Origin: a virus
Taxonomy: Duplodnaviria; Heunggongvirae; Uroviricota; Caudoviricetes
IMG/VR virus record: IMGVR_UViG_3300015608_002795
Span: 1-64,000 of that record
Direction: 5' to 3' (one strand)
DNA length: 64,000 nt
Part shown: positions 5,315 to 45,505 of the stretch, in pieces
How positions within the stretch are numbered: position 1 is the first letter of the stretch
How the letters are laid out: each line of letters opens with the position of its first letter
Notes under the pieces: generated by a model
Database searches by the model: none
Seen by the model: only the letters and a program-made list of their open reading frames with translations
Told to the model about the DNA's origin: nothing
Made by a program: the position numbers and the translations under genes

Positions 5315-5345
5315 TTTGGTGGGAATAAAAAAAATCGTATCTTTG
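5315..5345 (+). promoter_or_regulatory. Bacteroidetes-type sigma-A promoter (-33 TTTG / -7 TATCTTTG)
   Basis: 'TTTGGTGGG..(20 nt)..CGTATCTTTGTG' read in sequence; motif recurs before most transcription units. Confidence 0.55.
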
Positions 5346-5473
5346 TGAAAACAAAGGAATAAAAATATAATATATACAATTATGAAAATGGTTAATACAA
5401 ATACAAGTTCGTCACGTAGTTCTAACAGCTCGAAAATTCGAAGTTGATTGTATTCTATTGCTATACAATATTG

Positions 5474-5507
5474 AACCTCGAATTTAATTCGAGGTTTTTT
5501 GTTTTAT
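5474..5507 (+). terminator. intrinsic terminator
   Basis: AACCTCGAA-TTTAA-TTCGAGGTT stem-loop followed by TTTTTGTTTTAT. Confidence 0.6.
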
Positions 5508-5580
5508 GGTTCCATCGTCCAACTGGATAGGACATGACCCTGCGAAGGTTAAGATATGAGTTCGAATCTCATTGGGACTT
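5508..5580 (+). tRNA. tRNA-Arg (GCG?)
   Basis: acceptor GGTTCCA/TGGGACT; D-stem GTCC/GGAC; anticodon loop CTGCGAA; T-arm ATGAG-TTCGAAT-CTCAT. Confidence 0.55.
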
Positions 5581-5586
5581 CAAATT

Positions 5587-5675
5587 GGTGAGTTAAGCAG
5601 CTACATTGGAGTGGCGACCAGCTTTGAAACCTGGGTTTCGTTAAATCGGATGGGGGTCGGGTCCTCAGCTCACCG
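5587..5675 (+). tRNA. tRNA, class II, Ser(UGA)-like with C31:C39 mismatch and atypical T-loop GTCGGGT
   Basis: acceptor GGTGAGT/GCTCACC; anticodon region CCAGC-TTTGAAA-CCTGG; variable arm TTCG/CGGA. Confidence 0.4.
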
Positions 5676-5679
5676 CAAT

Positions 5680-5767
5680 GGAGGGATGGCAGAGTTGGTC
5701 TATTGCACCTGACTTGAAATCAGGAGGTCGGGCAACCGATCCGTGGGTTCGAATCCTACTCCCTCCT
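5680..5767 (+). tRNA. tRNA-Ser (UGA)
   Basis: acceptor GGAGGGA/TCCCTCC perfect; anticodon stem CCTGA/TCAGG with loop CTTGAAA; long variable arm; T-arm GTGGG-TTCGAAT-CCTAC. Confidence 0.65.
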
Positions 5768-5772
5768 CAAAT

Positions 5773-5845
5773 GTTCTTGTAGCTCAACGGTTAGAGTTTT
5801 CCGCTTCGAACGGAAAGGATGTAGGTTCGAATCCTACCAAGAATT
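5773..5845 (+). tRNA. tRNA-Arg (UCG)
   Basis: acceptor GTTCTTG/CAAGAAT; anticodon stem TTCCG/CGGAA with loop CTTCGAA; T-arm GTAGG-TTCGAAT-CCTAC. Confidence 0.65.
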
Positions 5846-5894
5846 CAAAAAAATTGAACTCACATTTTAATATATAGTGAAAATATGAGTTCAA

Positions 5895-6467
5895 ATGAAA
5901 TACACAGTATATAAAATAACAAATTTAATAAACGGTAAAATTTATATCGGAGTTCATAAAACAGAAAATTTAGACGATGGATATATGGGATCTGGTAAAA
6001 ATATAAAAAGAGCTATTGACAAATATGGAATTCAAAATTTTAAAAAAGAATATATTAAAATATTTGACAATCAAGAAGATATGTTTAAAATGGAGTCTGA
6101 GTTGGTAAATGAATTATTTTTATCTAGTCGTGAGAATTATAATATAATGAAAGGAGGTCATGGAGGATTTGAACATATAAATAAAAATTGTTGGAATAAA
6201 GAAAGTAGAAAAAATCATCTACAAAAAATATATCATTTGGTTTCAGCTGAAAAAAGAAAGGATATCGGTGCATATATGGGTAAAAACTTTGGGGGTAGTA
6301 ATAGATTAAGAGAGGATGTAATAAATTATAGATTAAAAATACTCGAAACAGTTGATATGTCTAAATATGGTTGGGTAGAAAAAGCTAGTAAATTATTAAA
6401 TATAACACATACACAAGTTAGGAGATTTGTAAATAAATATTATAAAGGAGAATATTATAGAAGATAA
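5895..6467 (+). CDS. GIY-YIG family homing endonuclease
   Basis: 'KYTVYKITNLINGKIYIGVHKT..GYMGSGKNIKRAIDKYG' GIY-YIG core. Confidence 0.8.
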   Translation: MKYTVYKITNLINGKIYIGVHKTENLDDGYMGSGKNIKRAIDKYGIQNFKKEYIKIFDNQEDMFKMESELVNELFLSSRENYNIMKGGHGGFEHINKNCWNKESRKNHLQKIYHLVSAEKRKDIGAYMGKNFGGSNRLREDVINYRLKILETVDMSKYGWVEKASKLLNITHTQVRRFVNKYYKGEYYRR

Positions 6468-6553
6468 GGAGAGTAAAGTAGCCAGGGTGCTACCACCGCC
6501 TGCTAAGCGAGTGGATCGGGTAACTGATTACGTTTCGAGTACGTTGCTCTCCG
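6468..6553 (+). tRNA. tRNA-Ser (GCU)-like, class II, anticodon stem with bulged A
   Basis: acceptor GGAGAGT/GCTCTCC; D-stem GTAGC/GCTAC; anticodon loop CTGCTAA; T-arm ACGT-TTCGAGT-ACGT. Confidence 0.5.
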
Positions 6554-6557
6554 CCAT

Positions 6558-6646
6558 GGTAAAATACCCAAGAGGATGTAAGGGGCTTGCTTGGAAAGCA
6601 AGTAGGTCGGGAAACTGGCGCATGAGTTCGAATCTCATTTTTACCG
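6558..6646 (+). tRNA. tRNA-Ser (GGA)
   Basis: acceptor GGTAAAA/TTTTACC perfect; anticodon stem CTTGC/GCAAG with loop TTGGAAA; long variable arm; T-arm ATGAG-TTCGAAT-CTCAT. Confidence 0.6.
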
Positions 6647-6660
6647 CAAAAATTAAAATT

Positions 6661-10025: not shown

Positions 10026-10056
10026 TTTGGTGGTAAAAAAATACATCGTATCTTTG
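10026..10056 (+). promoter_or_regulatory. Bacteroidetes-type promoter (TTTGGTGG..CGTATCTTTGTG)
   Basis: same motif and spacing as at 5315; sits 40 nt upstream of the SPFH gene. Confidence 0.55.
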
Positions 10057-10095: not shown

Positions 10096-11988
10096 ATGGA
10101 CTATTTAAGTTATTTAACGTCGCCGTGGGCAATCGGCATCGCTTCTGTTCTCTTTGTGCTATTTACATGGAAATGGATTCTAAGAGTATTATGTGGTATG
10201 GTGTTGATCCCCGAAGACAAAATTGGTCTTGTGACCAAAAAGTTCGTTCTATTTGGAGCAAATAAATCGCTTCCTGATGGACGAATTATCGCATTAAATG
10301 GAGAGGCTGGATACCAAGCAGACCCTCTCGCACCTGGACTTTATTTCGGGTATTGGATTTGGCAATATGATATTACTCTACAGGGATTTACAAAAATTCC
10401 TCAAGGTCAAATCGGACTTGTAATCGCAAAAGATGGTAATGAGTTACCAGCAGGTAGTATCCTCGCAAACGCAGTATCATGTGACAACTTCCAAGATGCT
10501 CGAAAATTCTTAACATCAGGTGGTAAAAAAGGTAAACAAGTTAGTTACATCAACACAGGTGTTTATCGTATTAACACATTGTTGTTTGATGTTATACCAG
10601 CTGAGATTCAAACTATTGAAGATGGTCAAGTAGGTGTAATAACTACACTCGATGGTGTTCCTCTTCAACAAGGCCAAATCGCGGGTAAAGATGTTCCAGG
10701 TCATAACAACTTCCAAGATTTTGATGTCTTTTTAAGTGGTGGTGGACAAAGAGGTCTACAAACTCAAGTAGTTCTTGCGGGTTCTTACGCTATCAACCCA
10801 TGGGCAGTTACAATTGAAAAAGTGCCAATGACTGAAGTTGGTATTGGTAATGTTGGTATCGTTATCTCCTATGTAGGTGATGAAGGTGTTGACACATCTG
10901 GTCAAGAATTCAAACACGGTAACATCGTAGGCAAGGGCCAAAAAGGTGTTTGGAAAGATCCTTTAGATCCGGGTAAATATCCTATCAACCCATATACACA
11001 CAAAATTCAAGTTGTACCAACAACTAACCTTGTGTTGAACTGGGCGGACGCAAGAACCGAGTCTCACAACTTAGATAAAAATCTAAGCACAATTACCGTT
11101 CGTTCTAAAGACGGTTTCCAATTTAACTTGGATGTATCTCAAATCATTCATATTCCTTCAACAGAAGCTCCTAAAGTAATTGCTCGTTTCGGTAGCATTC
11201 AAAACCTTGTATCTCAAGTTCTTGAACCTACTATTGGTAACTACTTCCGTAACTCAGCTCAAGATTCTGATGTTATTGCCTTCTTAAGTTCTCGTAAAGA
11301 ACGTCAAGATGCAGCAAAAGGACGTATCTCTGAAGTATTAAAAGAGTATAATGTATCTGCAGTGGATACTCTTATCGGTGACATCACACCTCCTGGTGAT
11401 TTGATGAAAACCCTTACTGATCGTAAAATTGCATCAGAGGAAGAAAAGACTTATGAAACTCAGATGAACGCTCAAAAAGTTAAGCAAACTCTTGAAAAAG
11501 AAACTGCGTTAGCTAATAAGCAAAAGGAAATCGTAGATGCTCAGCAATCAGTTCAAATCGCTGAACGTAGAGCTGAAGCTTTTGTTAAAGAAGCAGAAGG
11601 TAAAGCGAAATCAGTTAAACTTAACGCAGGTGCTGAAGCCGAAGCTACTAAACTACGTGCTGAAGCAAAAGCTTACGAAACTGAACAAGTGGGTAAGGCT
11701 GAAGCAACTAAGATTGAAAGCATTGGTAACGCAACTGCTGAAGCTTATAGAAAACAAGTTGAAGCTATGGGTAGTGATAACTTCTCCAAATTCAAAATCA
11801 CTGAAGAAATCGGAAAGAATGGTATCAAAATCATTCCTGAAGTTCTTATCACTGGTGGTGAAAATGGTGGTCCTATCTCTGGATTACTTGGATTGGAACT
11901 CCTTAAAAAGATTCAATCAGACAGTTCTACTGAAATGAAAACTGAATCGAAAGATGAAGTTAAAACAGTAGTATCAGATAAGAAATAA
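10096..11988 (+). CDS. SPFH/band-7 (flotillin-like) membrane protein
   Basis: N-terminal TM helix; SPFH-like core; C-terminal alanine/glutamate-rich coiled coil 'AEAKAYETEQVGKAEATKIES..' typical of flotillins. Confidence 0.75.
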   Translation: MDYLSYLTSPWAIGIASVLFVLFTWKWILRVLCGMVLIPEDKIGLVTKKFVLFGANKSLPDGRIIALNGEAGYQADPLAPGLYFGYWIWQYDITLQGFTKIPQGQIGLVIAKDGNELPAGSILANAVSCDNFQDARKFLTSGGKKGKQVSYINTGVYRINTLLFDVIPAEIQTIEDGQVGVITTLDGVPLQQGQIAGKDVPGHNNFQDFDVFLSGGGQRGLQTQVVLAGSYAINPWAVTIEKVPMTEVGIGNVGIVISYVGDEGVDTSGQEFKHGNIVGKGQKGVWKDPLDPGKYPINPYTHKIQVVPTTNLVLNWADARTESHNLDKNLSTITVRSKDGFQFNLDVSQIIHIPSTEAPKVIARFGSIQNLVSQVLEPTIGNYFRNSAQDSDVIAFLSSRKERQDAAKGRISEVLKEYNVSAVDTLIGDITPPGDLMKTLTDRKIASEEEKTYETQMNAQKVKQTLEKETALANKQKEIVDAQQSVQIAERRAEAFVKEAEGKAKSVKLNAGAEAEATKLRAEAKAYETEQVGKAEATKIESIGNATAEAYRKQVEAMGSDNFSKFKITEEIGKNGIKIIPEVLITGGENGGPISGLLGLELLKKIQSDSSTEMKTESKDEVKTVVSDKK

Positions 11989-12062: not shown

Positions 12063-12093
12063 TTTGTCAACTTAATAAAAAGTTGTATATTTG
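12063..12093 (+). promoter_or_regulatory. Bacteroidetes-type promoter (TTTG..TATATTTG)
   Basis: 'TTTGTCAACTTAATAAAAAGTTGTATATTTGTAG'; followed by a 10-codon mini-ORF and a hairpin terminator at 12184-12209. Confidence 0.45.
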
Positions 12094-12209
12094 TAGTATG
12101 AAAAAAGAACAATTAACATTTTTGAAGTAAAGTCATAGACCTTATTGATATCGTCAGCGGAATTAGACTGCTGTATATCATTTAACCCAGTCTTTGACTG
12201 GGTTTTTTA

Positions 12210-33850: not shown

Positions 33851-33858
33851 CGAATAGT

Positions 33859-33992
33859 TTGTATTATGGCGAAGCTGGGATTGATTTCGGGTAAACTCCA
33901 AAATCTTCTACTCAAGAACGAAAACCGCCATCCTGATGTACGAGGTAGATAGTATAAGGGATCATAGGTTCGAGTCCTATTAATACAAACAT
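33859..33992 (+). tRNA. tRNA-like with about 60-nt internal insertion (acceptor TGTATTA .. T-arm ATAGG-TTCGAGT-CCTAT .. TAATACA)
   Basis: perfect 7-bp terminal complementarity and canonical T-arm, but 134 nt end to end. Confidence 0.25.
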
Positions 33993-33994
33993 TA

Positions 33995-34070
33995 TGGCAT
34001 GGCTTAGAGGAAAAGAGCGGTCTCTCATAAGGACTGTCAAGTGGGTTCGAACCCCACGCATGCTACTAAT
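33995..34070 (+). tRNA. tRNA (CAU anticodon hairpin GGTCT-CTCATAA-GGACT); acceptor pairing imperfect
   Basis: T-arm GTGGG-TTCGAAC-CCCAC; D-stem GCT/AGC. Confidence 0.35.
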
Positions 34071-34130
34071 TCGGATTGGAAATTACCACTTCGGACTTTT
34101 AATATATATATAATAAAAATTAAAAAAGAA

Positions 34131-34733
34131 ATGTGTAATTATGGATGGAGTAACGGATTAGACTCCGCAAATGACAATAGAATTAGAAGTAAATATAAAT
34201 ATATAGCACTTTGTGAAAATTCAAATATTCACAGAGGAGTTTTAAGAAATAAAATAATTAAAGAGGGATTAATATTATATAAATGTTCAGAATGTGGAAT
34301 TACCAATGAATGGAATGGGAAAAAAATAATTTTAGAACTGGATCATATAAGCGGTGATAGTACTGATAATAGAATTGAAAATTTAAGATTTTTGTGTCCA
34401 AATTGTCATTCTCAAACACCAACATTTAAAGGTAGAAATAAACCGAAGTCAGAAAAAGAAATAAAAATAAGAAAAGAAAAGAAAAAAAAGGAGAGGAGAA
34501 AAAAAATAAAAAATAAAAAATGCAATAATTGTAGTAAAATGTGTAGCTTTAATGCGGATGTTTGTAGGGACTGTTACAAAATATTACAAAGAAAATATGA
34601 TAGACCAGATGATCAAATATTATTAAGACAGGTTAAAGAATTTGGATATACAAAAACATCAAAAATATATGGAGTTTCTGATAAAACTATTAAAAAATGG
34701 TTTGAGGATTTATCGGATACACCGAAAGATTAA
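34131..34733 (+). CDS. HNH homing endonuclease (track ORF 34041 trimmed to the ATG downstream of the tRNA)
   Basis: 'CSECGITNEWNGKKIILELDHISGDSTDNRIENLRFLCPNCHSQTPTF'; C-terminal HTH-like 'YGVSDKTIKKWF'. Confidence 0.75.
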   Translation: MCNYGWSNGLDSANDNRIRSKYKYIALCENSNIHRGVLRNKIIKEGLILYKCSECGITNEWNGKKIILELDHISGDSTDNRIENLRFLCPNCHSQTPTFKGRNKPKSEKEIKIRKEKKKKERRKKIKNKKCNNCSKMCSFNADVCRDCYKILQRKYDRPDDQILLRQVKEFGYTKTSKIYGVSDKTIKKWFEDLSDTPKD

Positions 34734-34736
34734 AAA

Positions 34737-34819
34737 GGCCCAATGGCGTAACGGTAGCCGCGGCAGGCTCAAACCCTGCTGACCTAAAAGTCGTGTAGGT
34801 TCGACTCCTACTTGGGTCA
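34737..34819 (+). tRNA. tRNA-Leu (CAA), class II
   Basis: acceptor GGCCCAA/TTGGGTC; anticodon stem GCAGG/CCTGC with loop CTCAAAC; long variable arm; T-arm GTAGG-TTCGACT-CCTAC. Confidence 0.7.
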
Positions 34820-35046
34820 CTATGAAAATACACGGTATTGATAAGTCTTTATATAAATTTAGTGCTTTAAAAGATAATAAAAAAGTGGCTACTATAAAAG
34901 TTGTAGCCTATACTAAATTTCAAGCTTATTATGAGTGTGTTAAATATTTTCCAGAACAATGGATACACCTACGAACATATTCGATTTGCGGAAGATGATG
35001 AAGAGTGTGGTCCAATTTTAACAAAAAATGATATTAAAAGAAAGAT

Positions 35047-35658
35047 ATGATATTTAAAGAGTTTCCAAAAATAGCAAGATTATCAAGAGAGATAATCATC
35101 ACTGAAAAAATAGATGGTACTAATTCATCTGTTTTTATTCAAAGTGCTGCTTTGGAAGAGGGCAGTAACCCCGAAATAATTGAGAATGTCAATGGTCTTA
35201 CTGTTAGAGCAGGTAGTAGAACTCGTTGGGTTACACCAACTGATGATAACAAAGGATTTGCTCGTTGGGTAAAAGAAAATGCCGAAGAATTGGTAAAGCT
35301 CGGTGAGGGTCATCACTTTGGTGAATGGTGGGGTAATGGTATTCAAAGGGGATATAATCTACCAAGAGGTGATAAAAGATTTTCGCTATTCAATGCAGGT
35401 AGATGGAGAATAAATTCCTTTGAAGAAAAAGGATTTGAGTGTCCACCAAAATGTTGTTCAGTAGTTCCTGTATTATATACTGGTATTTTCGATACCAATG
35501 CAATACAAGATACTCTTAACGAACTTATTGAGCATGGTAGTTATGCAGCTCCGGGTTTTATGAATCCTGAAGGAATTGTAATTTATCACATTGCTGGTAA
35601 TTTAGGATTTAAAAAAACTATTAAAAATGACGATAGACCAAAATCATTAATAGAATAG
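35047..35658 (+). CDS. ATP-dependent RNA/DNA ligase-like nucleotidyltransferase, motif I 'KIDGTN'
   Basis: 'REIIITEKIDGTNSSVFIQ' lysine-adenylylation motif about 20 aa from the N-terminus (Rnl2/Lig-like arrangement). Confidence 0.6.
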   Translation: MIFKEFPKIARLSREIIITEKIDGTNSSVFIQSAALEEGSNPEIIENVNGLTVRAGSRTRWVTPTDDNKGFARWVKENAEELVKLGEGHHFGEWWGNGIQRGYNLPRGDKRFSLFNAGRWRINSFEEKGFECPPKCCSVVPVLYTGIFDTNAIQDTLNELIEHGSYAAPGFMNPEGIVIYHIAGNLGFKKTIKNDDRPKSLIE

Positions 35659-35683: not shown

Positions 35684-36094
35684 ATGGTAAAGAAGTACTA
35701 CGAATATTATAAATCATCATTTATTCAAATATCTAATAATGATTATCGTTCTCTAATGGGTGAAACTAACGAGTATGGATATCTTATTAATCTAAATAGG
35801 ATTTCAAATTTTGATGAAAGAGATACTATACTGATAAAATCATTAGGATTTGATATTGCTTTTTCTGATATCGATAGTCAAAAAAGCAACTACCGTAAAT
35901 CATCTATACTTTTTAAAAAGGGTGAGGTTGTTCCGACACTTATAATAACTAAAATCGAGGATGAATATTTTATCGTAAATGTTATATTGAAAAATGATAA
36001 AAAAAGATCTTATTTTGATCCAGCATATATAAATGAATATTATAAGTGCGACCAAATAGATGGATTAATATCCTGTTTAAAAGATATTTTATGA
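35684..36094 (+). CDS. hypothetical protein (136 aa)
   Basis: intact ORF. Confidence 0.45.
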   Translation: MVKKYYEYYKSSFIQISNNDYRSLMGETNEYGYLINLNRISNFDERDTILIKSLGFDIAFSDIDSQKSNYRKSSILFKKGEVVPTLIITKIEDEYFIVNVILKNDKKRSYFDPAYINEYYKCDQIDGLISCLKDIL

Positions 36095-36957
36095 TTCAGA
36101 TTAGAATTGATAATGATGCAAATTATAAGTCTATTTTTTTCAATGGTAAAACCATAAGACAAAAAATAAACGGAAATATTCCAATTACCTCACCAAAATT
36201 TGCAGAAATAGAGGATGTTGCTATAAACAGTAAATGTTTTGCTAATTGTAATTATTGTTATGTGTCTGCTCTATCATCTGGAGAAAATTTTGATAATATT
36301 GTGGAGAAATCTATAGACGTTTGGGGATCCGTTAGTCAAAATAGTCGACCATTTCAAATTGCTATAGGAGGTGCTGGTGAACCAACTCTACATCCACAAT
36401 TTATAGACTTCATAAAATCTGTTAAGGACTTAGGAATAACACCTAATTATACAACAAATGGTATGCATTTATCTTCTGATATATTAGAATCCACAGAAAA
36501 ATATTGCGGGGGTGTGGCACTTAGTTATCATCCGCATATAAAAAAAGTATTTGATATTGCAATAAAAAAGTTAAAATCTATTAAAACAAAACTCAATATT
36601 CATATAATATTGGGAACTGATCAATCATTAATTGATGTAAAAAATTTGTACGAAATACATAAAGATGATATTGAATATTTTGTGATACTACCATATCAAG
36701 CATCAGGAAGAGGAAAGGAAATAGAAACTTCTTTAGTATGGAATAATTTTTTTAATTTTATATACTCACTACCAGAAAGATATCAATCCAAGTTTGCATT
36801 TGGTGCCTTATTTTATAAGTGGATTAATGAAAATGATATCAAATTAGATATAGATATATATGAGCCAGAAATATATTCTGGATATAGAATAATGGATGAC
36901 TCATATAAAACACTAAGAATATCAAGTTATAATACAAATCCTAAAAATAATATATAA
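36091..36957 (+). CDS. radical SAM enzyme (CxxxCxxC)
   Basis: 'CFANCNYCYV' cluster-binding motif about 50 aa from the ATG at 36091. Confidence 0.6.
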   Translation: MIQIRIDNDANYKSIFFNGKTIRQKINGNIPITSPKFAEIEDVAINSKCFANCNYCYVSALSSGENFDNIVEKSIDVWGSVSQNSRPFQIAIGGAGEPTLHPQFIDFIKSVKDLGITPNYTTNGMHLSSDILESTEKYCGGVALSYHPHIKKVFDIAIKKLKSIKTKLNIHIILGTDQSLIDVKNLYEIHKDDIEYFVILPYQASGRGKEIETSLVWNNFFNFIYSLPERYQSKFAFGALFYKWINENDIKLDIDIYEPEIYSGYRIMDDSYKTLRISSYNTNPKNNI

Positions 36958-37422: not shown

Positions 37423-37453
37423 TTTGGAATATAAAAAAAATATAGTATATTTG
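37423..37453 (+). promoter_or_regulatory. Bacteroidetes-type promoter (TTTGGAAT..TAGTATATTTGTAA)
   Basis: followed by the terminator hairpin at 37537-37566 and then the ArgRS-like gene. Confidence 0.5.
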
Positions 37454-37588
37454 TAATATGAAATTAATGGTAAATAATAGGAATAGAGAAACAGATTCAG
37501 TCTGATTGGATATTCCTTGCTAAAAAATAACAAGATAACCCGTCAGAAATGACGGGTTTTTTTGTGCTAAAAATTAAAAATTAAAAAA

Positions 37589-38758
37589 ATGAAAATTGAT
37601 ATAAACAAAATAAAAATAACACCAGAAAAACTTGGATTTAATTTCTGCCAATTTGGTGAATTAACAGAAGAAGTAAAATCTTGGGTTGATTTTTGGAAAT
37701 TTAAAACAGAAAAATCAGGACCATTTACTAACATAATAGTTGGTGATATAGATTTTGAATTAATATTCAATGAATCAGTCAGTTACGACTATGTAGATGG
37801 ATTTAGTCCTAACCTAAATAAACATCTTCATGTTGGACATTTATCAAATCTTGTTATTGCAAATGCAATGCAGAAATTGGGAATAGGAAAAGAGTTCATT
37901 GCAATATTAGGTGATACCTTAGATGGTGAGGTAAATAAGTCAGATGCACTTTCATCATACCAAAAATATTGTCAAGAATTCAATTATAAAGTAGATAAAA
38001 TTTTTTACGCTTCTGACATGAAATTAAAGGATGATATTTTAAAAGAGGGAGAAGGTGACTACTTAGGATCAAAAGTATTTGATTTAGGTGATGAAAAAAT
38101 AGTTGGAATAAAGAGTTCTGGATTAACATCTTACTTTTATCAAGATGTTGCCTTAGCTCAACACTTAAATTCATCGACTCTTTATCTGACTGGTTTTGAA
38201 CAGGATAATCACTTCAAATCATTAAAGAAGCTATTTCCATCGACAAACCATATAGGTTTAGGATTAGTTCTTCTAAATGGTAAGAAAATGTCAAGTAGTG
38301 AAGGTAATATCATTCTATTAAAAGATTTTATAAACCAACTATTAGAAATGTTTAATGATATAAAATTGGTTTATAATATTTTAGCTGGTCAAATTTTAAA
38401 ATCAGCACCAGGTAGTAGTAAATCAATTGATATGAAACTAATTAGTAATCCTAAATTATCACTTGGGTTATATTTAAGTTACACTATGGCACATATTAAA
38501 AGTTGTGGAGTAGAAACAAAAAAAATTAAAAATTATGTATCAGAGGAATTACAATTTGCAGAACTAAAATCAAAAGTAAATTTAAGTCCTAATTTATTAT
38601 TTGAATCTCTAGTAAAACACTGTAAGTCAATTAATAAGTTATATGAGACACATTATATAAAAAACAACAAAGAAAATATAGAACTTTTCTCTACACTAAT
38701 CTCTGATTTAGAGTTAGGAATGAGTAAATTAGGTATGTTTTCCATTGATAAAGTATAA
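37589..38758 (+). CDS. class-I aminoacyl-tRNA-synthetase-like catalytic core (ArgRS-like: 'LHVGHLSN' HIGH and 'KMSSS'), no anticodon-binding domain
   Basis: 'FSPNLNKHLHVGHLSNLVIANAMQKLG' resembles the ArgRS/CysRS HIGH region; 'KMSSSEGN' is KMSKS-like; 389 aa versus more than 550 aa for a full ArgRS. Confidence 0.55.
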   Translation: MKIDINKIKITPEKLGFNFCQFGELTEEVKSWVDFWKFKTEKSGPFTNIIVGDIDFELIFNESVSYDYVDGFSPNLNKHLHVGHLSNLVIANAMQKLGIGKEFIAILGDTLDGEVNKSDALSSYQKYCQEFNYKVDKIFYASDMKLKDDILKEGEGDYLGSKVFDLGDEKIVGIKSSGLTSYFYQDVALAQHLNSSTLYLTGFEQDNHFKSLKKLFPSTNHIGLGLVLLNGKKMSSSEGNIILLKDFINQLLEMFNDIKLVYNILAGQILKSAPGSSKSIDMKLISNPKLSLGLYLSYTMAHIKSCGVETKKIKNYVSEELQFAELKSKVNLSPNLLFESLVKHCKSINKLYETHYIKNNKENIELFSTLISDLELGMSKLGMFSIDKV

Positions 38759-38847
38759 AAATTAAAATTATGAAAGGTTGGATAAAGTCAATAAGACAAT
38801 CAAAAGGATCGTAACTTAACGGAAAAATCACAAAAAATCTAACTATT

Positions 38848-38922
38848 GATAAATATCACTGTAGTTCAACTGAATAGAATTGAGGTTTCCTAAACTTCGG
38901 ATGTGGGTTTGATTCCCACCAG
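38848..38922 (+). tRNA. tRNA-like (acceptor ATCACTG/CAGTGAT perfect, T-arm GTGGG-TTTGATT-CCCAC, aberrant anticodon region)
   Basis: lies at the 3' end of the minus-strand HNH gene. Confidence 0.3.
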
Positions 38923-39630
38923 TGATTCATAATATTTAATCCATTTCCTTATGGAGTTATCACTAACCCCATATTTTCTACCCGTGCCACAGTACCCTAA
39001 TCTTTTCACATCATCTAATATTACATCATAATTTGGCCTTTTTACTTTTCTTGTTTGTGATTTATCTTGTTTATTAAAACATTTTAAGCACATTTTAGAG
39101 TGTTTTAATATTTTCATACCACAAACACAATATGTATTTTTTTTATTTAATTTATTAAATAAATATTCATCATAATCAAAATCAAAAATATTTAAATTCT
39201 CCTTATTTATATTTTCTATTATTGTTTTTATGATGTCTTTATTAAAGCAAACAGAAAAATGTATTTCGTATAATTTCCAGTTTGATTTTTCTATTATATC
39301 ATGCCTATTTTGATAATAGGCTTTCAAATTACCATTTTTTTCATAATGTTGGTTACCATTTATTTCTATTCCAACTTTTTTATTAGGAAAGGCAATATCT
39401 ATTGAAAAATGTCTATCAGTAAGTGGTGTAAATTCTTCAACATATAAAATATTCATTTCATATAGAGCTTCTTTGAATTTATTACAAGGTATTGATTTGA
39501 ATTTTTCTTTTGATTTCCAGTTATGTTTGTCGGGGTTATTTTTATAAAATTCTTTTCTTGAGTTTGATATTTTTAATTTTGTAGATTCTGATATTTTTTT
39601 ACCACGCTTTGTTAGTCCAATATTTCCCAA
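38890..39630 (-). CDS. HNH-family homing endonuclease-like protein; separate HTH mini-ORF upstream in another frame (39639-39719, minus strand)
   Basis: C-terminal HTH 'YGVSDNSIRKWIKYY' as in the 34131 HNH; the upstream 26-codon ORF 'MNEIVIKLRKSGKSIREIAIDIGVFA' is an HTH. Confidence 0.6.
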   Translation of the reverse strand: MGNIGLTKRGKKISESTKLKISNSRKEFYKNNPDKHNWKSKEKFKSIPCNKFKEALYEMNILYVEEFTPLTDRHFSIDIAFPNKKVGIEINGNQHYEKNGNLKAYYQNRHDIIEKSNWKLYEIHFSVCFNKDIIKTIIENINKENLNIFDFDYDEYLFNKLNKKNTYCVCGMKILKHSKMCLKCFNKQDKSQTRKVKRPNYDVILDDVKRLGYCGTGRKYGVSDNSIRKWIKYYESLVGIKPTSEV

Positions 39631-39828: not shown

Positions 39829-40428
39829 ATGGATAAAGTCTTTTCTATAAAAGAATTCATCGGGAGTCAAGTTTATAATGGTGAATTATTAGATATTAAA
39901 ATCTTTAAACAAAGTGATGATTCTCTTTGTGGTCCGGCATCTATAAAAATGATACTTGATTTTTATGGAAACAATATTACCGAATCTGAAATTGCAAAAT
40001 TATGTAATCATACTTATGAATTAGGAACTGATGATGTTCATATGAAACAAGCATGTGAATCTCTTGGGTATGAAGTTTTCATTAAAAATGAATCTACATT
40101 TGATGATATAAATAATTTTCTTAGAAAGGGAATACCAGTTATTGTAGATTGGTTCGCAGGTGTTAAATTAGATGATGAAGATGTATCTGAAGGATTTGTA
40201 TATGATACAAAATTACCAACCGATGTAGGTGTTCCAAATGGTCACTCTTCTATAGTTGTTGGATTAGATGATGCTTATATTTATTTAATAGATCCTGAAA
40301 TTGCTGAAATTAGGAAAATAAGAAAAGAAGATTTTATCAGGGTGTGGTTTGATTTTAGAAATCCATACATTATGAACTGGGAAGAAATGATTTTAAGACA
40401 AATTTTTGTTATTTTACCAAACAAATAG
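39829..40428 (+). CDS. C39-like papain-fold cysteine peptidase
   Basis: 'QSDDSLCGPASIKMILDFYG' matches the peptidase-C39 catalytic Cys region; a conserved His lies downstream. Confidence 0.55.
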   Translation: MDKVFSIKEFIGSQVYNGELLDIKIFKQSDDSLCGPASIKMILDFYGNNITESEIAKLCNHTYELGTDDVHMKQACESLGYEVFIKNESTFDDINNFLRKGIPVIVDWFAGVKLDDEDVSEGFVYDTKLPTDVGVPNGHSSIVVGLDDAYIYLIDPEIAEIRKIRKEDFIRVWFDFRNPYIMNWEEMILRQIFVILPNK

Positions 40429-40485
40429 TATATTTGTATTTATGAACGTCACCAGACGGGAAATCCGAAGTAAAAACCTACTTGA

Positions 40486-40851
40486 TTAAGTATCTCCGTA
40501 GTGATCGATACAGGAATATATCAAAACCTCGGATTCACTAACTTTATATTCTAATCTTACTTTCTTATTTATTCTCTTCGAACATCTACCATCACCTTTT
40601 AAATGTTCTGACCTTCCTAGCCCAGCACTTTGTGGTCTCCACAATTCGGGATTTCTAGCCATATCATTTATCAACGAAACTACTTTTTTATAATCATTTT
40701 TATTTAATTGAAGCATCTCATTAAATTCCTCAAATGCTTTTTTAGTAAAGGAAATTTTCCTCTCGACCTTCTTACTAGGATCAGAGTTATTAGATATATG
40801 AGCATGCATTCTATAGCTCTCATTCACAAAATTTTCGAATCTTGTAATCAT
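40486..40851 (-). CDS. hypothetical protein (121 aa)
   Basis: intact ORF. Confidence 0.45.
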   Translation of the reverse strand: MITRFENFVNESYRMHAHISNNSDPSKKVERKISFTKKAFEEFNEMLQLNKNDYKKVVSLINDMARNPELWRPQSAGLGRSEHLKGDGRCSKRINKKVRLEYKVSESEVLIYSCIDHYGDT

Positions 40852-40861: not shown

Positions 40862-43135
40862 TTATAAATTTTCCTTATTAATTTCACCTCTTATTATACT
40901 AGTATCAGCCTGATTTAATGGATAATTAGGTAGTGTTAGCCTCATATTTGCATTATCTGCGAATATTAAGTACCTATAATCCTCTCCAATTATTGCTTGA
41001 TTTAATAATTTACTATGTTCTGACTCAGGAACAATATCATTAAACAATCTAATATTCGTAATCTTCATATCAGACCCTAATATTGTAGCATTTGTATTTT
41101 CCAATTCAAAATTAACTATTGTTAAATCATTCTCTTGTGAATATACTTTCTTTAGTATGGTAGAATCTATTGAAGAAGCATCTGATTCAACATCAGTATT
41201 TCTTTTATAAATCCATTGGTTTATTTTTCGTTGTCTTTGATCAACATTCACAAGATATGAGTACCACGTTCCTTCCTGTAAAGCGTTAGCATTTCCAGTA
41301 ACTCCTATAGCAAAATTATAACTATCTGTATTTAATGTAAATGATATCACATCAGATTCTAGATTTATTTTAAATCCTAAACTATTTGTATCATCATAAT
41401 ATTTTATGAAATTATAACTATCATTAACGGTATAGTTATTTATATTAAACCATAACATGAAGCTAAAATTATCAGACACTTTGAAATAATCTCTGAAGTT
41501 TCTATATGTAACACCAGTAGATTGATAAGTAATACTATTTAAATCATAATTGGACTTACTAATAATGTTAGTAGAGTTTTCAATTAACTCTTTATCAATA
41601 TCAACAAGAATTTCAGTTCTTAGAACATCTCTTGTAAGTGGTCTAAATTGTTCCTTGTTAGCGACATCTTTCTTATCTAGAGAATTTTCAAGTCCAAATA
41701 GTTCATCAATAGTAGAATTCTTAGTAAGTTCTTTAACTTTATCAGTGATTGTCTGATTAACACCAATAATATTGGATTTTTGTACATATTTTTTAAGCAT
41801 AACCTTATAGTATAAAGCAGAGTTGTTAAAATTTCTAAATTGTTGAGCATGCTCTACTTGAAACATTCTGTTTAAATTACAAAACCACAAAAAATCTTCT
41901 TTACTTGGTCTTTTTTCAACCCCAAATGCCTTTTTAAACATTTCTTTTGGTATGTGAACTTCAAAACTATCAAATAAAGAAAGGTCAAATTGATTCATTG
42001 CTATTTGATTATCAGGAAAATTATTTCCATCAACCGCTATTTTCATCATCTCACTACACACATAATTGTATAATTGATATTCGTGGAAGGTAAAATCTAT
42101 TCCTTTCTTATCAGGATCGGTTAGAAAATAAACTACATCGTGTCCAAACATTTGGGTCGAATCATTACTTAATTGATTAAGTAAATTTACTGCCTGTGTT
42201 TGTTGATATGGTTGAAATAATTTCGATATATCATCAGGGGTTAATGGTTTTAATGGACTAGCATCACAACTAGATCCATCTAAAAGACCGCTTGTAGAGT
42301 TAGAATCACTAGCTGTTCCACCAACAATGCCTAACATTAGACAACTACAATTTTCTCTGACACCATATAAATTTGTTTTTTGTGCATCAAGTGTAACGTT
42401 TTGGAAGTCACCAATTAAATTAATATCAAATATTTTAACAATTGATGATCCACTATATTCTATTAAATATTCAATTTGAAAAAATCTTACTGGATTTATT
42501 CTAACAGTTGATATATTTTCTTTAGTTAATGGTTCCCATTGTGATACAGTTCTACCATAATCCTGTGAGAATCTATACTTTATATTAGCATTGGTAATAT
42601 CACCACTTGATAGAATTTCTATATCATCAATTTTAAAGACCTTATAAATATAAGGTGGCTTAATAACAATAGATGTATTTGTAGTATTTAAGGTGATAAT
42701 ACTCTCACCATCGGTTATACTTCTAGCAACTGCCCCATTTAATGTATAATCGAGAAGTTTAATAGTTCCAATGTCAGATGTCCCTGCTCTTTCCCATTTT
42801 ATATCGATATACATCGGATCTTTTGGATCAACTGTTTGAAAATTAAGTATGGTACTATTCAATTCAGACCATCCAGTCCATGTTGTATTATTCCTTGATA
42901 TTCTATAATATGTATTTAGGTATCTAGAATTGCTTGTTCCAGAAGAATTATAATCAAAGGTTTTGAATTTCTCAATATCTGATAAGTTTAATATTGATTG
43001 TATATAGGTATCACCAATACCCACAAACTGCGGTTCTTCTCCTGTTGCAAATGTTTCAGTTATTGAAATAACTCCAGTAAGTGTGTTTTTATCTACAGAA
43101 TACATAATATGATATATATTAAAAATGTATTTCAC
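40862..43135 (-). CDS. large hypothetical protein (757 aa), probable virion structural or receptor-binding protein
   Basis: long Asn/Ser/Thr/Tyr-rich beta-rich sequence typical of tail fibre/lectin-like proteins; promoter-like TATATTTG just upstream on the minus side. Confidence 0.55.
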   Translation of the reverse strand: MKYIFNIYHIMYSVDKNTLTGVISITETFATGEEPQFVGIGDTYIQSILNLSDIEKFKTFDYNSSGTSNSRYLNTYYRISRNNTTWTGWSELNSTILNFQTVDPKDPMYIDIKWERAGTSDIGTIKLLDYTLNGAVARSITDGESIITLNTTNTSIVIKPPYIYKVFKIDDIEILSSGDITNANIKYRFSQDYGRTVSQWEPLTKENISTVRINPVRFFQIEYLIEYSGSSIVKIFDINLIGDFQNVTLDAQKTNLYGVRENCSCLMLGIVGGTASDSNSTSGLLDGSSCDASPLKPLTPDDISKLFQPYQQTQAVNLLNQLSNDSTQMFGHDVVYFLTDPDKKGIDFTFHEYQLYNYVCSEMMKIAVDGNNFPDNQIAMNQFDLSLFDSFEVHIPKEMFKKAFGVEKRPSKEDFLWFCNLNRMFQVEHAQQFRNFNNSALYYKVMLKKYVQKSNIIGVNQTITDKVKELTKNSTIDELFGLENSLDKKDVANKEQFRPLTRDVLRTEILVDIDKELIENSTNIISKSNYDLNSITYQSTGVTYRNFRDYFKVSDNFSFMLWFNINNYTVNDSYNFIKYYDDTNSLGFKINLESDVISFTLNTDSYNFAIGVTGNANALQEGTWYSYLVNVDQRQRKINQWIYKRNTDVESDASSIDSTILKKVYSQENDLTIVNFELENTNATILGSDMKITNIRLFNDIVPESEHSKLLNQAIIGEDYRYLIFADNANMRLTLPNYPLNQADTSIIRGEINKENL

Positions 43136-43158
43136 AAAGAATCTGTATATTTGTAATT

Positions 43159-43386
43159 ATGAAGATTTATCCAAAAGAAGATATTAAAAATGGATTTGAT
43201 CAAATCATATGGTATAAAAATAAATCATATGAATGCACACAAATAGAAGAGAATAGAGACCTTTGGGTAGTTACATGTGAACTCATTGCTAATGAATACC
43301 CACTACTTAAAATGAGTGAAATACTTTTACGATTCTATACTATTGAAGATCAAAGAGATATGAGGATAGATGATGTCCTAAAATAA
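43159..43386 (+). CDS. hypothetical protein (75 aa)
   Basis: intact ORF. Confidence 0.4.
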   Translation: MKIYPKEDIKNGFDQIIWYKNKSYECTQIEENRDLWVVTCELIANEYPLLKMSEILLRFYTIEDQRDMRIDDVLK

Positions 43387-43387
43387 T

Positions 43388-43418
43388 TTTGTTTATTCCG
43401 AAAATGTTCGTATATTTG
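43388..43418 (+). promoter_or_regulatory. Bacteroidetes-type promoter (TTTGTTTATTCC..CGTATATTTGTAA)
   Basis: 18 nt upstream of the peptidase gene start. Confidence 0.5.
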
Positions 43419-43435
43419 TAAAAAATTATTGTATA

Positions 43436-44641
43436 ATGAACATAAAAGAAACATTTTTAAGATTGACAAGTAAGACTTATCCACATGGAAGTGAGTCTGA
43501 ACTGTACGATCTATTAATCGACGGATTGGAATTTGACGAGTTTGGTAACAGATACATACAAGTTGGCGAAAGCACCTGTATGTTTACTTCTCACCTGGAT
43601 ACAGCCACATCTGCTAAGACAGATGTTAATCATGTTTTTGAAGGTAATATTATTAAGACAGATGGTACATCAATTTTAGGCGCAGATGATAAGGCAGGTG
43701 TTACTATCATGTTTTATATGATTGAGAATAAAGTGCCTGGTCTATATTATTTCTTCTTAGGTGAAGAGGTTGGTTGTATCGGATCTAAGAAACTATCTAC
43801 TAAATTAAATACTACAAAAGAATATCCATTTGATAAGATCAATAAGGTTATTTCATTTGATAGGCGTGGATATGACTCTGTTATCACCTATCAAGCAAGT
43901 AGCAGATGCTGTTCTGATGAATTCGCTCAAGCTTTAGCAGATGACCTAAATAAGTGTGGTGTAGCTTTTAATTATAAGCCAGATCCAACAGGTATCTATA
44001 CGGACTCTGCTCAATTTACACGAATTTATCCAGAATGTACCAACATTTCAGTTGGATATAAGTCTGAGCACACTTTCTCTGAAAATCAAGATATTGATCA
44101 CTTAGAAGAATTAGGCAAAGCTTGTTTAAACGTTGAATGGGAAAAACTGCCTGTAACAAGAGATCCAAGCAAGTATGAATACAGAAGTTATAGTTATGGA
44201 TACGGTGATTGGGAGTCTGAATGGGAAGATTATTATGGATATGGATCTTATGGAAATAGATCTAGAATGATTTCCAACGCAGCATCCGCATCATCATATA
44301 CACCGCCTGAAAAAGATGAAACTTTACACTTCTATGATGAAGAATACCAATTTGTATCTTCTCTTAAGAAGAATAAGCTTAGTGATAGATTAATTTCTGT
44401 AGATTTTGCACCTGAAAGAATTGATGATGAAAAATCATCCATCATTGAAATACTTGAATCACTTGAAGTAGATTATAAGGCGGTCAAATGGGATGGATTC
44501 AAACTTGTGGTCAAACACAATGAGCCAGCAGATCATACTACAGAATGCTTGAGAGCTGATCTAACTGAATTCTTACCAAATCTTGATTTCTGGAAAAAAG
44601 AAATTGAAGATTATAAAGGAGTTAGTGATAAGATTTATTAA
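43436..44641 (+). CDS. M20/M28/M42-family metallopeptidase-like protein
   Basis: 'HLDTATSAKTDV' and 'GADDKAGVTIM' metal-ligand motifs. Confidence 0.55.
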   Translation: MNIKETFLRLTSKTYPHGSESELYDLLIDGLEFDEFGNRYIQVGESTCMFTSHLDTATSAKTDVNHVFEGNIIKTDGTSILGADDKAGVTIMFYMIENKVPGLYYFFLGEEVGCIGSKKLSTKLNTTKEYPFDKINKVISFDRRGYDSVITYQASSRCCSDEFAQALADDLNKCGVAFNYKPDPTGIYTDSAQFTRIYPECTNISVGYKSEHTFSENQDIDHLEELGKACLNVEWEKLPVTRDPSKYEYRSYSYGYGDWESEWEDYYGYGSYGNRSRMISNAASASSYTPPEKDETLHFYDEEYQFVSSLKKNKLSDRLISVDFAPERIDDEKSSIIEILESLEVDYKAVKWDGFKLVVKHNEPADHTTECLRADLTEFLPNLDFWKKEIEDYKGVSDKIY

Positions 44642-44651
44642 AAATATTAAA

Positions 44652-45116
44652 ATGAAAACATTAGCAATATACGCTGGATCATTTAATCCATTTCACATTG
44701 GTCATTTGAATATTTTGGAAAAGGCAGAAAAAATTTTTGGAAAAGGAAATGTACTAGTTGCCATGGGTGTAAATCCAGCTAAATTGTCGTTAGATGAAGT
44801 AAGAAAAGGAGCCTTAGAAAAAATGTCTCTTTTAGAGAATAAGATTGGAAGAAAGGTTGAAGCCTATTTTTCCTTTCTACATGAGTTTATTGAACAAAAA
44901 GAGAAAGAAGGATACGATGTTGTATTAGTTAGAGGTCTAAGAAATGGTGATGATCTCGCTTATGAAAATAATCAATTGAGTTTCATACATGACTTTAAAC
45001 CTGAGGTTAAATCAGTGTTTATTATGTGTGATAAGCAATATGAACACGTTTCATCTTCTTCTATTCGTCAATTGGAATCTTTTATTCCAGGTAGTGGGTC
45101 CAAATATTTAGTATGA
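44652..45116 (+). CDS. nucleotidyltransferase of the NMNAT/PPAT (cytidylyltransferase-like) family
   Basis: 'IYAGSFNPFHIGHLNIL' is the (H/T)xGH adenylyltransferase signature (GxFxPxHxGH). Confidence 0.65.
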   Translation: MKTLAIYAGSFNPFHIGHLNILEKAEKIFGKGNVLVAMGVNPAKLSLDEVRKGALEKMSLLENKIGRKVEAYFSFLHEFIEQKEKEGYDVVLVRGLRNGDDLAYENNQLSFIHDFKPEVKSVFIMCDKQYEHVSSSSIRQLESFIPGSGSKYLV

Positions 45117-45487
45117 TATTTATTCGTTTTATTTTATTATTATCATCTATCTATATAATATATAGGTCAACACATATGATATTTGATATCATAATTAGTC
45201 ACTCTTCCTATAATAAAGCATTCAAAAGGTATAATGATATTAATAATAAGATTGCAAACTTTTTATACCAATCTGATAATATCAATAAATATAGAAGTCA
45301 AACATCTGAGTATTTAAAAATAACTTATGATAATTTAAAAGAGTTCACTGAAATTGTGTCGATGAAGGATTACACGATGTATTACATTAAATCTTATAAA
45401 GAACTATATGATTTATTTAAAGATATTATACCTGAACTAGTTCAGGAGGAAAGAGAAAAAAAATTAAATAAAATTTTGTTGGTTTAA
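45113..45487 (+). CDS. hypothetical membrane protein (124 aa)
   Basis: hydrophobic N-terminus 'MIFIRFILLLSSIYIIY'. Confidence 0.4.
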   Translation: MIFIRFILLLSSIYIIYRSTHMIFDIIISHSSYNKAFKRYNDINNKIANFLYQSDNINKYRSQTSEYLKITYDNLKEFTEIVSMKDYTMYYIKSYKELYDLFKDIIPELVQEEREKKLNKILLV

Positions 45488-45505
45488 AAAGATTTCGTAT
45501 CTTTG
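45475..45505 (+). promoter_or_regulatory. Bacteroidetes-type promoter (TTTGTTGG..TTCGTATCTTTGTG)
   Basis: followed by a leader, the terminator hairpin at 45676-45713 and the 3' tRNA super-cluster. Confidence 0.5.

Follow-up and report, generated by a model that had tools for sequence, protein, structure and literature searches.

Codon-matched leader reading frames and putative transcription attenuators precede the tRNA operons of a predicted huge Bacteroidota phage

The 64,000-nucleotide (nt) stretch analysed here, positions 1 to 64,000 of the IMG/VR virus record IMGVR_UViG_3300015608_002795 and hereafter called the window, carries transfer RNA (tRNA) genes in arrays, and ahead of the arrays the same cassette recurs, with a promoter, a leader open reading frame (ORF) of 17–37 codons, a hairpin followed by a T-run, and the tRNA array 11–15 nt later. 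It is likely, judging from motif, codon and folding evidence, that the window belongs to a huge phage of Bacteroidota which has promoters of the host sigma type and applies leader-peptide transcription attenuation to its tRNA operons. By protein similarity and gene order the window is a relative of the 635–642 kb genomes of the Mahaphage clade, LR745206 and LR756502, which are used below for comparison together with the more distant LR756504. There are seven or eight paralogous units. Between them, those of the window account for 18 of the 20 amino acids; His, Phe and Trp are seen in relatives, and Met is represented in the window by only one tRNA, called at relaxed threshold in array E. The gap of 11–15 nt between hairpin and tRNA has no space for a promoter, so the tRNAs should be transcribed only by read-through of the hairpin. 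The promoter finding by itself is a modest result, and the main content, which appears strongly supported, is the set of codon-matched leaders with their putative terminators and antiterminators.

The units were located by a rule-based scan for a hairpin and T-run at most 110 nt upstream of a tRNA, preceded by an ATG ORF of 12–60 codons with the nearest stop. This rule picked six window units without regard to composition. ARAGORN does not call the first tRNA of unit D, which was therefore included manually; for several units a shorter ATG start was chosen by eye after the rule-based pick. The terminator hairpins have predicted energies of -12 to -20 kcal/mol in addition to the T-run. The seven clear units and one tentative unit (H) are as follows, where the pairings are predictions.

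2536–2592, + strand: leader ORF A, MTTIKNIKKSKKRIKMIR, with six Lys AAA codons
2612–2640, + strand: attenuator hairpin A and T-run; leader segment 2579–2589 pairs with the 5' arm, -11.3 kcal/mol
2653–2916, + strand: array A, tRNA-Lys UUU, CUU and UUU
5382–5447, + strand: leader ORF B, MKMVNTNTSSSRSSNSSKIRS, with eight Ser codons and two Arg codons (CGT, CGA)
5473–5497, + strand: attenuator hairpin B and T-run; leader segment 5433–5448 pairs with the 5' arm
5508–6647, + strand: array B, tRNA-Arg GCG, Ser UGA, Arg UCG, a GIY-YIG gene, Ser GCU (relaxed threshold only) and Ser GGA
18657–18749, + strand: leader ORF C, MNKNLEISVTISYEGYYYEEETRSVGLAFL, enriched in Tyr and Glu
18771–18799, + strand: attenuator hairpin C and T-run; leader segment 18728–18740 pairs with the 5' arm, -18.8 kcal/mol
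18814–19681, + strand: array C, tRNA-Tyr, three tRNA-Glu and two tRNA-Tyr
21534–21599, + strand: leader ORF D, MKQIHNISAKIGGGAGASVSG, with three ATA, one GGG, three GGC, one GGA, two GCG and one GCC codon
21625–21654 and 21660–21682, + strand: tandem attenuator hairpins D; the leader end AGUGGCUGA (21591–21599) pairs with CCAGUCACA
21693–25724, + strand: operon D, with tRNAs Ile UAU-like, Gly UCC, Ala UGC, Gly GCC and Gly UCC
21693–25724, + strand: proteins of operon D, two HNH genes, an alanyl-tRNA synthetase (AlaRS)-like ORF (23695–24486) and a glycyl-tRNA synthetase (GlyRS)-like ORF (24470–24955)
30592–30705, + strand: leader ORF E, MKLNTRNMTIMNLNVVNTLCIRPCSGIAISNSDGLDG
30726–30752, + strand: attenuator hairpin E and T-run; leader segment 30665–30675 pairs with the 5' arm, -13.9 kcal/mol
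30766–34820, + strand: array E, four tRNA-Leu, two Asn, Ser CGA, Ile GAU, Cys, two Val, two Thr and Met, with homing endonuclease genes interspersed
45562–45648, + strand: leader ORF F, MKLFINIQVQPTQQPDQDPDKGKAICML
45676–45701, + strand: attenuator hairpin F and T-run; segment 45628–45639 pairs with the 5' arm and loop, -10.2 kcal/mol, p = 0.08
45717–46530, + strand: array F, three tRNA-Pro, three tRNA-Asp, one tRNA-Gln and one odd tRNA
46543–46599, + strand: leader ORF G, MRIVISYQQQQQQIDRTD, with the codons CAG CAA CAG CAA CAA CAA
46622–46651, + strand: attenuator hairpin G and T-run; segment 46589–46610, spanning the stop codon, pairs with the 5' arm
46664–47056, + strand: array G, four tRNA-Gln UUG and one tRNA-Gln CUG
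37458–37505, + strand: tentative leader ORF H, MKLMVNNRNRETDSV, with the Arg codons AGG and AGA
37537–37558, + strand: hairpin and T-run H; the alternative pairing is weak in the window and comprises 8 base pairs (bp) in the LR745206 homolog
37589–38928, + strand: arginyl-tRNA synthetase (ArgRS)-like gene (37589–38758) and tRNA-Arg CCU (38855–38928), downstream of H

Five of the 11 strong promoters in the window head a cassette, namely those of units B, C, D, E and F. Unit G has no promoter of its own and is, from its position, a presumptive internal attenuator. The same distribution is seen in the relatives, where the promoter is kept before units A–F and the G units have none. Hairpins with T-runs do recur along the window, as the initial annotation had stated when it described rho-independent terminators reused everywhere, but most of them do not lie at gene ends and are instead putative attenuators between promoters and tRNA arrays; the leader ORFs themselves were absent from that annotation. 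Unit H, whose LR745206 homolog has the leader MKTMTINNRNRLTDII, is tentatively a further leader-attenuator unit.

Matched codons were defined as those readable by the anticodons of the array with standard wobble, and the codon usage of the long ORFs of the window served as background. The leader ORFs are enriched in codons of their own downstream tRNAs: each of the seven window units is enriched, with binomial P values between 8e-3 and 8e-7, the Fisher combined P of these seven alone is 6.5e-20, and among the 5040 possible pairings of leaders with arrays the true one scores highest. At the amino-acid level each leader is among the top 1–10 of 630 small window ORFs for its own set, with the poly-Gln leader G preceding five tRNA-Gln and the Tyr/Glu leader C preceding Tyr and Glu tRNAs. 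The correspondence is also found for single codons. Leader B uses CGT and CGA, each of which makes up 7–8% of the Arg codons in window genes, and array B has tRNA-Arg GCG and UCG, not UCU. ATA occurs three times in leader D and tRNA-Ile UAU is found in array D, ATT occurs four times in leader E and tRNA-Ile GAU is found in array E, and leader D contains in addition codons that are rare for Gly (GGC, GGG) and for Ala (GCG, GCC). The leaders would in this way spell out which codons the phage treats as limiting, for example ATA in unit D and ATT in unit E.

AT-rich DNA yields many short ORFs and phage terminators are often leaky, and the ORFs could be meaningless, the hairpins ordinary leaky terminators, and the tRNAs products of unregulated read-through. 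This is very improbable given the combined P value from the window alone; moreover, the match is found again, for other sets of amino acids, in at least four genomes, no homolog has a disrupted ORF, and the complementarity described below is specific to each leader's own terminator.

The full leader transcripts are predicted to fold as a leader hairpin followed by the terminator, with Z-scores of -3.2 to -5.9. The first of these hairpins joins a stretch in the 5' portion of the ORF, often AACAUA, to UAUGUU and the stop codon at the ORF's 3' end. The last 10–40 nt of each ORF, often extending across the stop codon, are complementary to the 5' arm of its own terminator. This pairing beats shuffled sequences at p < 0.05 in 16 of 22 units from the window and its relatives, and has a mean of -13.1 kcal/mol for own pairs versus -7.7 for cross-class pairs, with none of 5000 re-pairings as good. 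When the transcripts are cut before the 3' arm they adopt the pairing, at -17.8 kcal/mol for C, -12.2 for G and -12.0 for B. The pairing in unit C is maintained while the sequence changes, from AGUAGGACUGGC with GCCGGUUCCUAC in the window to UUAGUCAGAC with GUCUGAUUAA in LR756502; in LR756504 GCUUGGGU pairs with ACCCAAGC, and the unit H homolog of LR745206 has a clear antiterminator of 8 bp, AUCUGAUG with CAUCAGAU. As modelled, the layout is the 1:2, 2:3, 3:4 arrangement of the trp, his and thr attenuators, where segment 2 is the complementary segment and segment 3 the 5' arm of the terminator.

The direction of the regulation is deduced from predicted pairings only, some of them weak, and the full-length minimum-energy folds always contain the terminator. 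The leaders might accordingly be translated and regulatory without acting through stalling and read-through; for instance, efficient translation might favour read-through, or what changes might be the processing or stability of the tRNA precursor instead of termination. We consider this unlikely, since in all 22 units the complementary segment is placed at the 3' end of the ORF or across the stop codon, a position at which a ribosome finishing translation would cover it, and since the geometry is that of the trp, his and thr attenuators, in which the antiterminator is likewise weaker than the terminator.

Membership in the Rfam leader families (Thr, His, Leu, Trp and Phe leader) was not found for any part of the window. 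The best such match is Thr_leader at 18701–18805, covering leader C and its terminator, with 30.1 bits against a threshold of 55 (E = 0.13), so that unit C is structurally similar to a classical attenuator without belonging to the family. A sensor that reads codon-like triplets directly and independently of translation, for example a T-box riboswitch, would also account for a terminator that responds to tRNA, and T-boxes are known to control terminators of aminoacyl-tRNA synthetase genes. It is extremely improbable here: there is no T-box match in Rfam at E <= 0.5 anywhere in the window, and a T-box uses one specifier codon, against many different codons in one frame between ATG and stop in the leaders. 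T-boxes are moreover rare outside Firmicutes and related groups.

The cassettes are also found in LR756502 and LR745206, and where the arrays differ the leaders shift in step. Unit A of the window has a Lys-only leader and a Lys-only array, whereas its counterpart in LR756502 has a K/H/F/W leader, MRTINKHKHFSKLNKWFSNHRFEAKAFC, and precedes His, Phe, Trp and Lys tRNAs, as does the counterpart MTTNSTHKNFSKSHKWFSNQSFGTESVLSLN in LR745206. An independent metagenome contig (L130) has the counterpart MRAIHKHKNFSKSFKWFSHGFGTEGELPKFKLFL, likewise of the K/H/F/W kind, followed by tRNA-His and tRNA-Phe, the only tRNAs called on this short contig. Gln-only arrays stand behind poly-Gln leaders in three genomes, and an F-type unit is present on an IMG/VR contig (L004). 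The more distant LR756504 was reached via its ArgRS-like gene (52% identical). Its tRNA groupings differ from those of the window and the leaders follow them: MTTIIRNMNNNINRTRTT... precedes tRNA-Thr, a threonyl-tRNA synthetase (thrS, E = 1e-142) and tRNA-Asn, Thr and Arg, and the internal leader MKTIAMIIRMRIIRPKMLG, with 10 of 18 codons matched (P = 2e-6), precedes tRNA-Arg UCU, Ile GAU, Met and the ArgRS-like gene. The leader ORFs are intact in every unit, seven clear ones in the window and 15 or more in the relatives.

Outside the Mahaphage relatives no cassette was detected by the rule-based scan of all loci collected. The 80 loci found in IMG/VR through the RNA ligase and the 29 found through the M28 peptidase belong mostly to unrelated or more distant phages, and among these loci arrays are present only in L003 and L004. 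A metagenome scan with the 757-amino-acid protein described below gave eight short loci, of which only L130 is informative, and no tRNAs are found in the neighbourhoods of its homologs in LR756501 and LR756504. Similarity of arrays F and G in blastn is, outside close relatives, only generic tRNA similarity, and a search of IMG/VR for the exact D-type leader pattern (ATAACATATCA-N25-50-GTGGCTGA) gave six matches, all by chance, on unrelated contigs without tRNAs.

The promoters preceding the units belong to a recurrent motif, TTTG-N19-21-TAnnTTTG, which has 13 matches in the window against 2.33 +/- 1.51 expected from dinucleotide-preserving shuffles (n = 100), none of which reaches 13. All ten sites named in the initial annotation, where this motif was proposed as a promoter module, are exact matches. 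A two-block weight-matrix scan of the window sets 11 strong sites, termed class I, apart from all else, and adds to the ten the site at 40405. These sites are listed here as predicted promoters.

5315–5345, + strand: class I promoter, -33 box TTTGGTGG and -7 box GTATCTTTG; heads unit B, 36 nt before the ATG of leader B
10026–10056, + strand: class I promoter, 39 nt before an SPFH/Band 7 gene (10096–11988)
12063–12093, + strand: class I promoter, predicted start on the ATG of a short ORF (12098–12130)
12184–12204, + strand: hairpin and T-run, after the 10-codon ORF 12098–12130 (MKKEQLTFLK) and ahead of protein-coding genes
18607–18638, + strand: class I promoter, heads unit C
21482–21513, + strand: class I promoter, heads unit D
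29909–29940, + strand: class I promoter, 84 nt before ORF 30025–30240
30491–30521, + strand: class I promoter, heads unit E
37423–37453, + strand: class I promoter, heads tentative unit H; predicted start is the A of the ATG at 37458
40405–40436, + strand: class I promoter, facing a short ORF (40442–40489) and antisense into converging genes
43388–43418, + strand: class I promoter, 17 nt before an M28 peptidase-like gene (43436–44641); the orthologous site is kept in LR756502
45475–45505, + strand: class I promoter, heads units F and G

The final G of the -7 box lies at 5345, 10056, 12093, 18638, 21513, 29940, 30521, 37453, 40436, 43418 and 45505. Aligned on this box the sites have the extended consensus aaaTTTGGTGG, an A-rich spacer of about 14 nt and (C)GTATMTTTGTR, which is the form in which the module was originally described, with a box spacing of 19 or 20 nt and the -7 TAnnTTTG in all 11. 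Every strong site is on the plus strand and faces an ORF or leader on the same strand, and the 10-mer GTATMTTTGT occurs 12 times on the plus strand of the window and not at all on the minus strand. In all 11 the -7 box is entirely within non-coding DNA (P = 2e-9), taken as the 16.4% of the window that is neither tRNA nor ORF of at least 60 amino acids. A minus-strand match at 40238 looks like chance, the sites 14992 and 43145 have the -7 box without the -33 TTTG, and the motif scan found no class I sites between 47 and 64 kb. The ORF 12098–12130 and the hairpin behind it may constitute another attenuator.

In the syntenic parts of LR756502, LR745206 and IMG/VR relatives the motif is 5–10 fold enriched and nearly always on the plus strand, with 0–1 minus-strand matches per locus, and it is kept at the same module positions although the spacers diverge; the -33 box is there TTTGG or TTAGG. 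Promoters of the E. coli type, from which the module had been said to differ, are at background level in the window (137 matches to -35/-10 against 118.5 +/- 11.3) and were rejected.

The consensus of the Bacteroides primary sigma factor is TAnnTTTG at -7 and TTTG around -33 (PMC7366714), and the motif is best read as a promoter of this Bacteroidota type, as had been proposed. The likeness to the sigma-ABfr promoters includes both boxes, the spacing of 19–21 nt and a position just upstream of genes with very short 5' leaders or none, while the phage boxes differ in being extended and unusually uniform (TTTGGTGG, GTATMTTTGT) and in being carried by a phage. In Flavobacterium psychrophilum the -7 box covers -12 to -5 (PMC9723704). 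If it ends at -5 also here, the predicted start falls on or 1 nt before the ATG at 12098, 37458, 40442 and 43159, and the messenger RNAs (mRNAs) from those class I sites would be leaderless. Enrichment in the window and its relatives, the match to the published consensus and the phage kinship together support the core of the initial interpretation, and the motif offers a sequence-only argument for assigning uncultured huge phages to Bacteroidota hosts. No literature linking TAnnTTTG to huge phages was found in a full-text search.

Conservation that reaches past the host consensus, in TTTGGTGG and in GTATMTTTGT, is what would be expected if the motif were read by a phage sigma factor, or by a phage-modified polymerase, that resembles the host type. 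The -33 TTTG is not found genome-wide in Flavobacterium johnsoniae (PMC7366714), so that the very strong TTTGGTGG here could be due to a phage factor instead of host sigma-A alone; some huge phages do encode their own sigma-70 (Al-Shayeb et al. 2020, PMC7162821), and a second, phage-specific gene-start motif co-exists in the window. We nevertheless regard a phage factor as improbable and take the host primary sigma factor to be the probable reader, because the two boxes, and the distance between them, agree exactly with the sigma-A consensus in the literature (PMC7366714), no sigma factor gene was seen in the window among the part of the ORFs searched, and strong promoters often go beyond the minimal consensus.

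From the architecture and the pairings we infer that the leaders are translated and that each operon would be switched on by a shortage of its own products. When the matching charged tRNAs are plentiful, the ribosome would reach the stop codon and mask segment 2, so that the terminator forms and little tRNA is made. When any matching tRNA is scarce, the ribosome would stall at the matching codons and segment 2 would be freed, and it would then hold the 5' arm of the terminator, allowing the RNA polymerase to read through into the tRNA genes. The shortage might come from a mismatch in codon usage between the AT-rich phage and its host, or from host defences that cleave tRNA, for example anticodon nucleases. 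A demand-driven supply of tRNAs, possibly answering depletion of host tRNAs, is in our judgement a probable function, and on balance we lean towards seeing the units as a set of self-regulating tRNA circuits, in which each leader samples, codon by codon, the charged tRNAs that its own operon encodes. Leader-peptide attenuation has been reported in Flavobacterium (PMC9723704), and the host phylum should therefore be able to run such a device.

Several observations count against this reading. Unit A lacks a good adjacent promoter, with only a weak intragenic match upstream (2333–2364, plus strand, inside ORF 1764–2531 and 171 nt upstream of leader A), the function of which is doubtful, and unit H and the short ORF at 12098 offer few codons to judge by. 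The antiterminators of some window units are modest, with p = 0.19 for D and p = 0.08 for F and a weak pairing for H, and RNAalifold on 3–4 homologs recovers terminators only, since the leaders are difficult to align. Units that are homologous between related genomes do not count as independent samples. Amino-acid starvation, finally, would also trip the switch, and futilely.

The amino-acid operon attenuators of Proteobacteria (trp, his, leu, thr, ilv, pheA) resemble the phage units in several ways: regulatory codons are clustered in a short ORF, an intrinsic terminator precedes the genes under control, the 3' part of the leader is complementary to the 5' arm of the terminator, and a leader hairpin forms when the leader is untranslated. 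Leaders for more than one amino acid are also known, in thr (Thr, Ile) and ilv (Ile, Leu, Val). They differ in controlling biosynthetic enzymes, whereas the phage units control tRNAs and sometimes synthetase-like genes; the phage system is furthermore viral, is present in seven or eight paralogous copies and has no Rfam leader membership. As the regulated genes are the tRNAs themselves, the sensed molecule would be the operon's own product, and the new element is, as far as the sequences tell, the target, an operon that encodes the very tRNAs whose charged forms its leader would sample. The E. coli pheST attenuator with its pheM leader is closer in that it controls a component of the translation apparatus matched to the leader codons, but it is cellular, concerns one amino acid and controls a synthetase only, whereas the phage cargo is mainly tRNA genes. 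T-box riboswitches likewise respond to how much of a given tRNA is available, by controlling whether a terminator ahead of translation-related genes is read through, but they bind the uncharged tRNA directly, without translation and through one specifier codon. The tRNA clusters of other large phages (T4, T5, KVP40, and those of Al-Shayeb et al. 2020) also hold dozens of tRNAs with interspersed homing endonucleases and have RNA ligase genes nearby, but in the literature searched no codon-matched leader with an attenuator is described for them.

The main ideas on why large phages carry dozens of tRNAs, and on how they use them, are compensation of codon usage and escape from tRNA-cleaving defences of the host. 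If the proposed regulation is true, the phage would measure tRNA demand rather than express its tRNAs constitutively, would replace only those tRNAs that become limiting, and would carry a built-in sensor of translational stress. It would also be the first case of leader-peptide attenuation controlling tRNA genes: no description for tRNA genes or arrays was found in the full-text literature, from which subscription journals are largely missing, so that older work on T5 or T4 may exist. A textbook mechanism would thereby be extended to a new class of target genes, and the units could provide compact, orthogonal and amino-acid-specific sensors for synthetic biology in Bacteroidota.

The assignment to a huge phage with a Bacteroidota host, made initially from the promoter motif and gene content, agrees with the protein comparisons. 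The product of the 757-amino-acid ORF (40862–43135, minus strand) is 55% and 51% identical to translated LR756502 (642 kb) and LR745206 (635 kb) and 33% identical to LR756501 (735 kb), and the order of the tRNA units is syntenic with LR756502 and LR745206; the window contains neither the terminase nor the capsid gene. These LR records are huge phages of Al-Shayeb et al. 2020 (PMC7162821), where genomes above 634 kb are placed in the Mahaphage clade and predicted to replicate in Bacteroidetes. Weaker matches of the same protein are annotated as 'neck protein' in jumbo phages of Tenacibaculum and Chryseobacterium, and there is no match to it in PHROG; the former suggestion of a fibre found no support in these searches and was rejected. 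A complete TonB-dependent receptor gene with the Pfam Plug and beta-barrel domains is carried by the phage at 27343–29274, and has 54 relatives in a species-level genome collection, nearly all in Bacteroidota and 36–42% identical, among them Saprospiraceae, Chitinophagaceae, Flammeovirga and Bacteroidales. The receptor could alter uptake by the host or block superinfection. Its best match (51%) lies on a 16.5 kb contig binned as Deltaproteobacteria (L132, JAJFLM010000305.1), which is probably a mis-binned phage contig, since nearly all other matches are from Bacteroidota. Ribosomal RNA was not found in the window by Rfam, where only tRNAs matched, and a cellular origin was rejected on the lack of ribosomal RNA and of a housekeeping context. 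The cultured Tenacibaculum phage PTm1 shows no tRNAs in its first 50 kb, the part of the record examined, which lists coding sequence features only. Two short metagenome contigs of sample Ga0154020 (L124, L129) encode the 757-amino-acid protein at 95–98% identity, so the same or a very close phage should be present in that sample.

A second motif at gene starts, TAATATATA, which like the site at 40405 was absent from the initial annotation, occurs 30 times in the window against 6.4 expected. An ATG ORF starts within 30 nt in 25 of the 30 cases, against 20% for random positions, most often at a distance of 4–5 nt, and GGGA(A/C) is often found 10–12 nt upstream of the motif.

5368–5376, + strand: TAATATATA, 5 nt before the ATG of leader B
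1053, 3949, 17765, 20953, 21465, 30564, 31649, 36948, 39815, 45548 and 47800, + strand: further examples of TAATATATA
43121, 40864, 17728 and 10019, - strand: examples of TAATATATA

The motif serves both strands, including homing endonuclease genes and the 757-amino-acid neck-like gene, and is conserved in both LR756502 and LR745206. It could act as a phage-specific promoter whose mRNAs would be almost leaderless, or it could mark the start of translation.

The number of tRNAs in the window depends on the method, with 41 from ARAGORN at default settings, 43–47 from Rfam and about 50 from ARAGORN at relaxed threshold, and the former count of about 55 was somewhat high; ARAGORN at very low thresholds with the intron option gave mostly junk calls, which were not used. 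The dense homing endonucleases noted before are indeed present, with LAGLIDADG, GIY-YIG and several HNH genes interspersed among the tRNAs. The synthetase-like ORFs within the tRNA operons are short and all far below the full-length family cut-offs, the AlaRS-like ORF of 263 amino acids matching alaS with E = 4.5e-18, the ArgRS-like gene of 389 amino acids matching argS with E = 2e-8, and the GlyRS-like ORF of 161 amino acids showing a weak resemblance.

A long variable arm is normally confined to Leu, Ser and Tyr tRNAs. In the window tRNAs for Lys, Glu, Asn, Cys, Val, Thr, Asp and Gln are 83–91 nt long (2653–2743, 2751–2839, 19153–19239, 31532–31619, 32271–32542, 46362–46446 and 46818–46900), and both long tRNA-Lys genes have a stem-loop of about 15 nt in the variable region according to the Rfam alignment. 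Canonical tRNAs of 72–74 nt with the same anticodons adjoin the long copies. Two Ile-like tRNA genes (21693–21773 and 31446–31526) have the anticodon arm at positions 15–31 and no normal D arm, two tRNA-like genes have anticodon loops of 6 nt (33379–33452 and 46157–46230), and in a tRNA-like gene of 65 nt (23545–23609) the anticodon arm is shortened. Between the RNA ligase gene (35047–35658) and unit H lies a gene for a radical SAM protein (36091–36957), whose best matches include prokaryotic viperin-family models, at E = 5e-11 and well below the cut-off.

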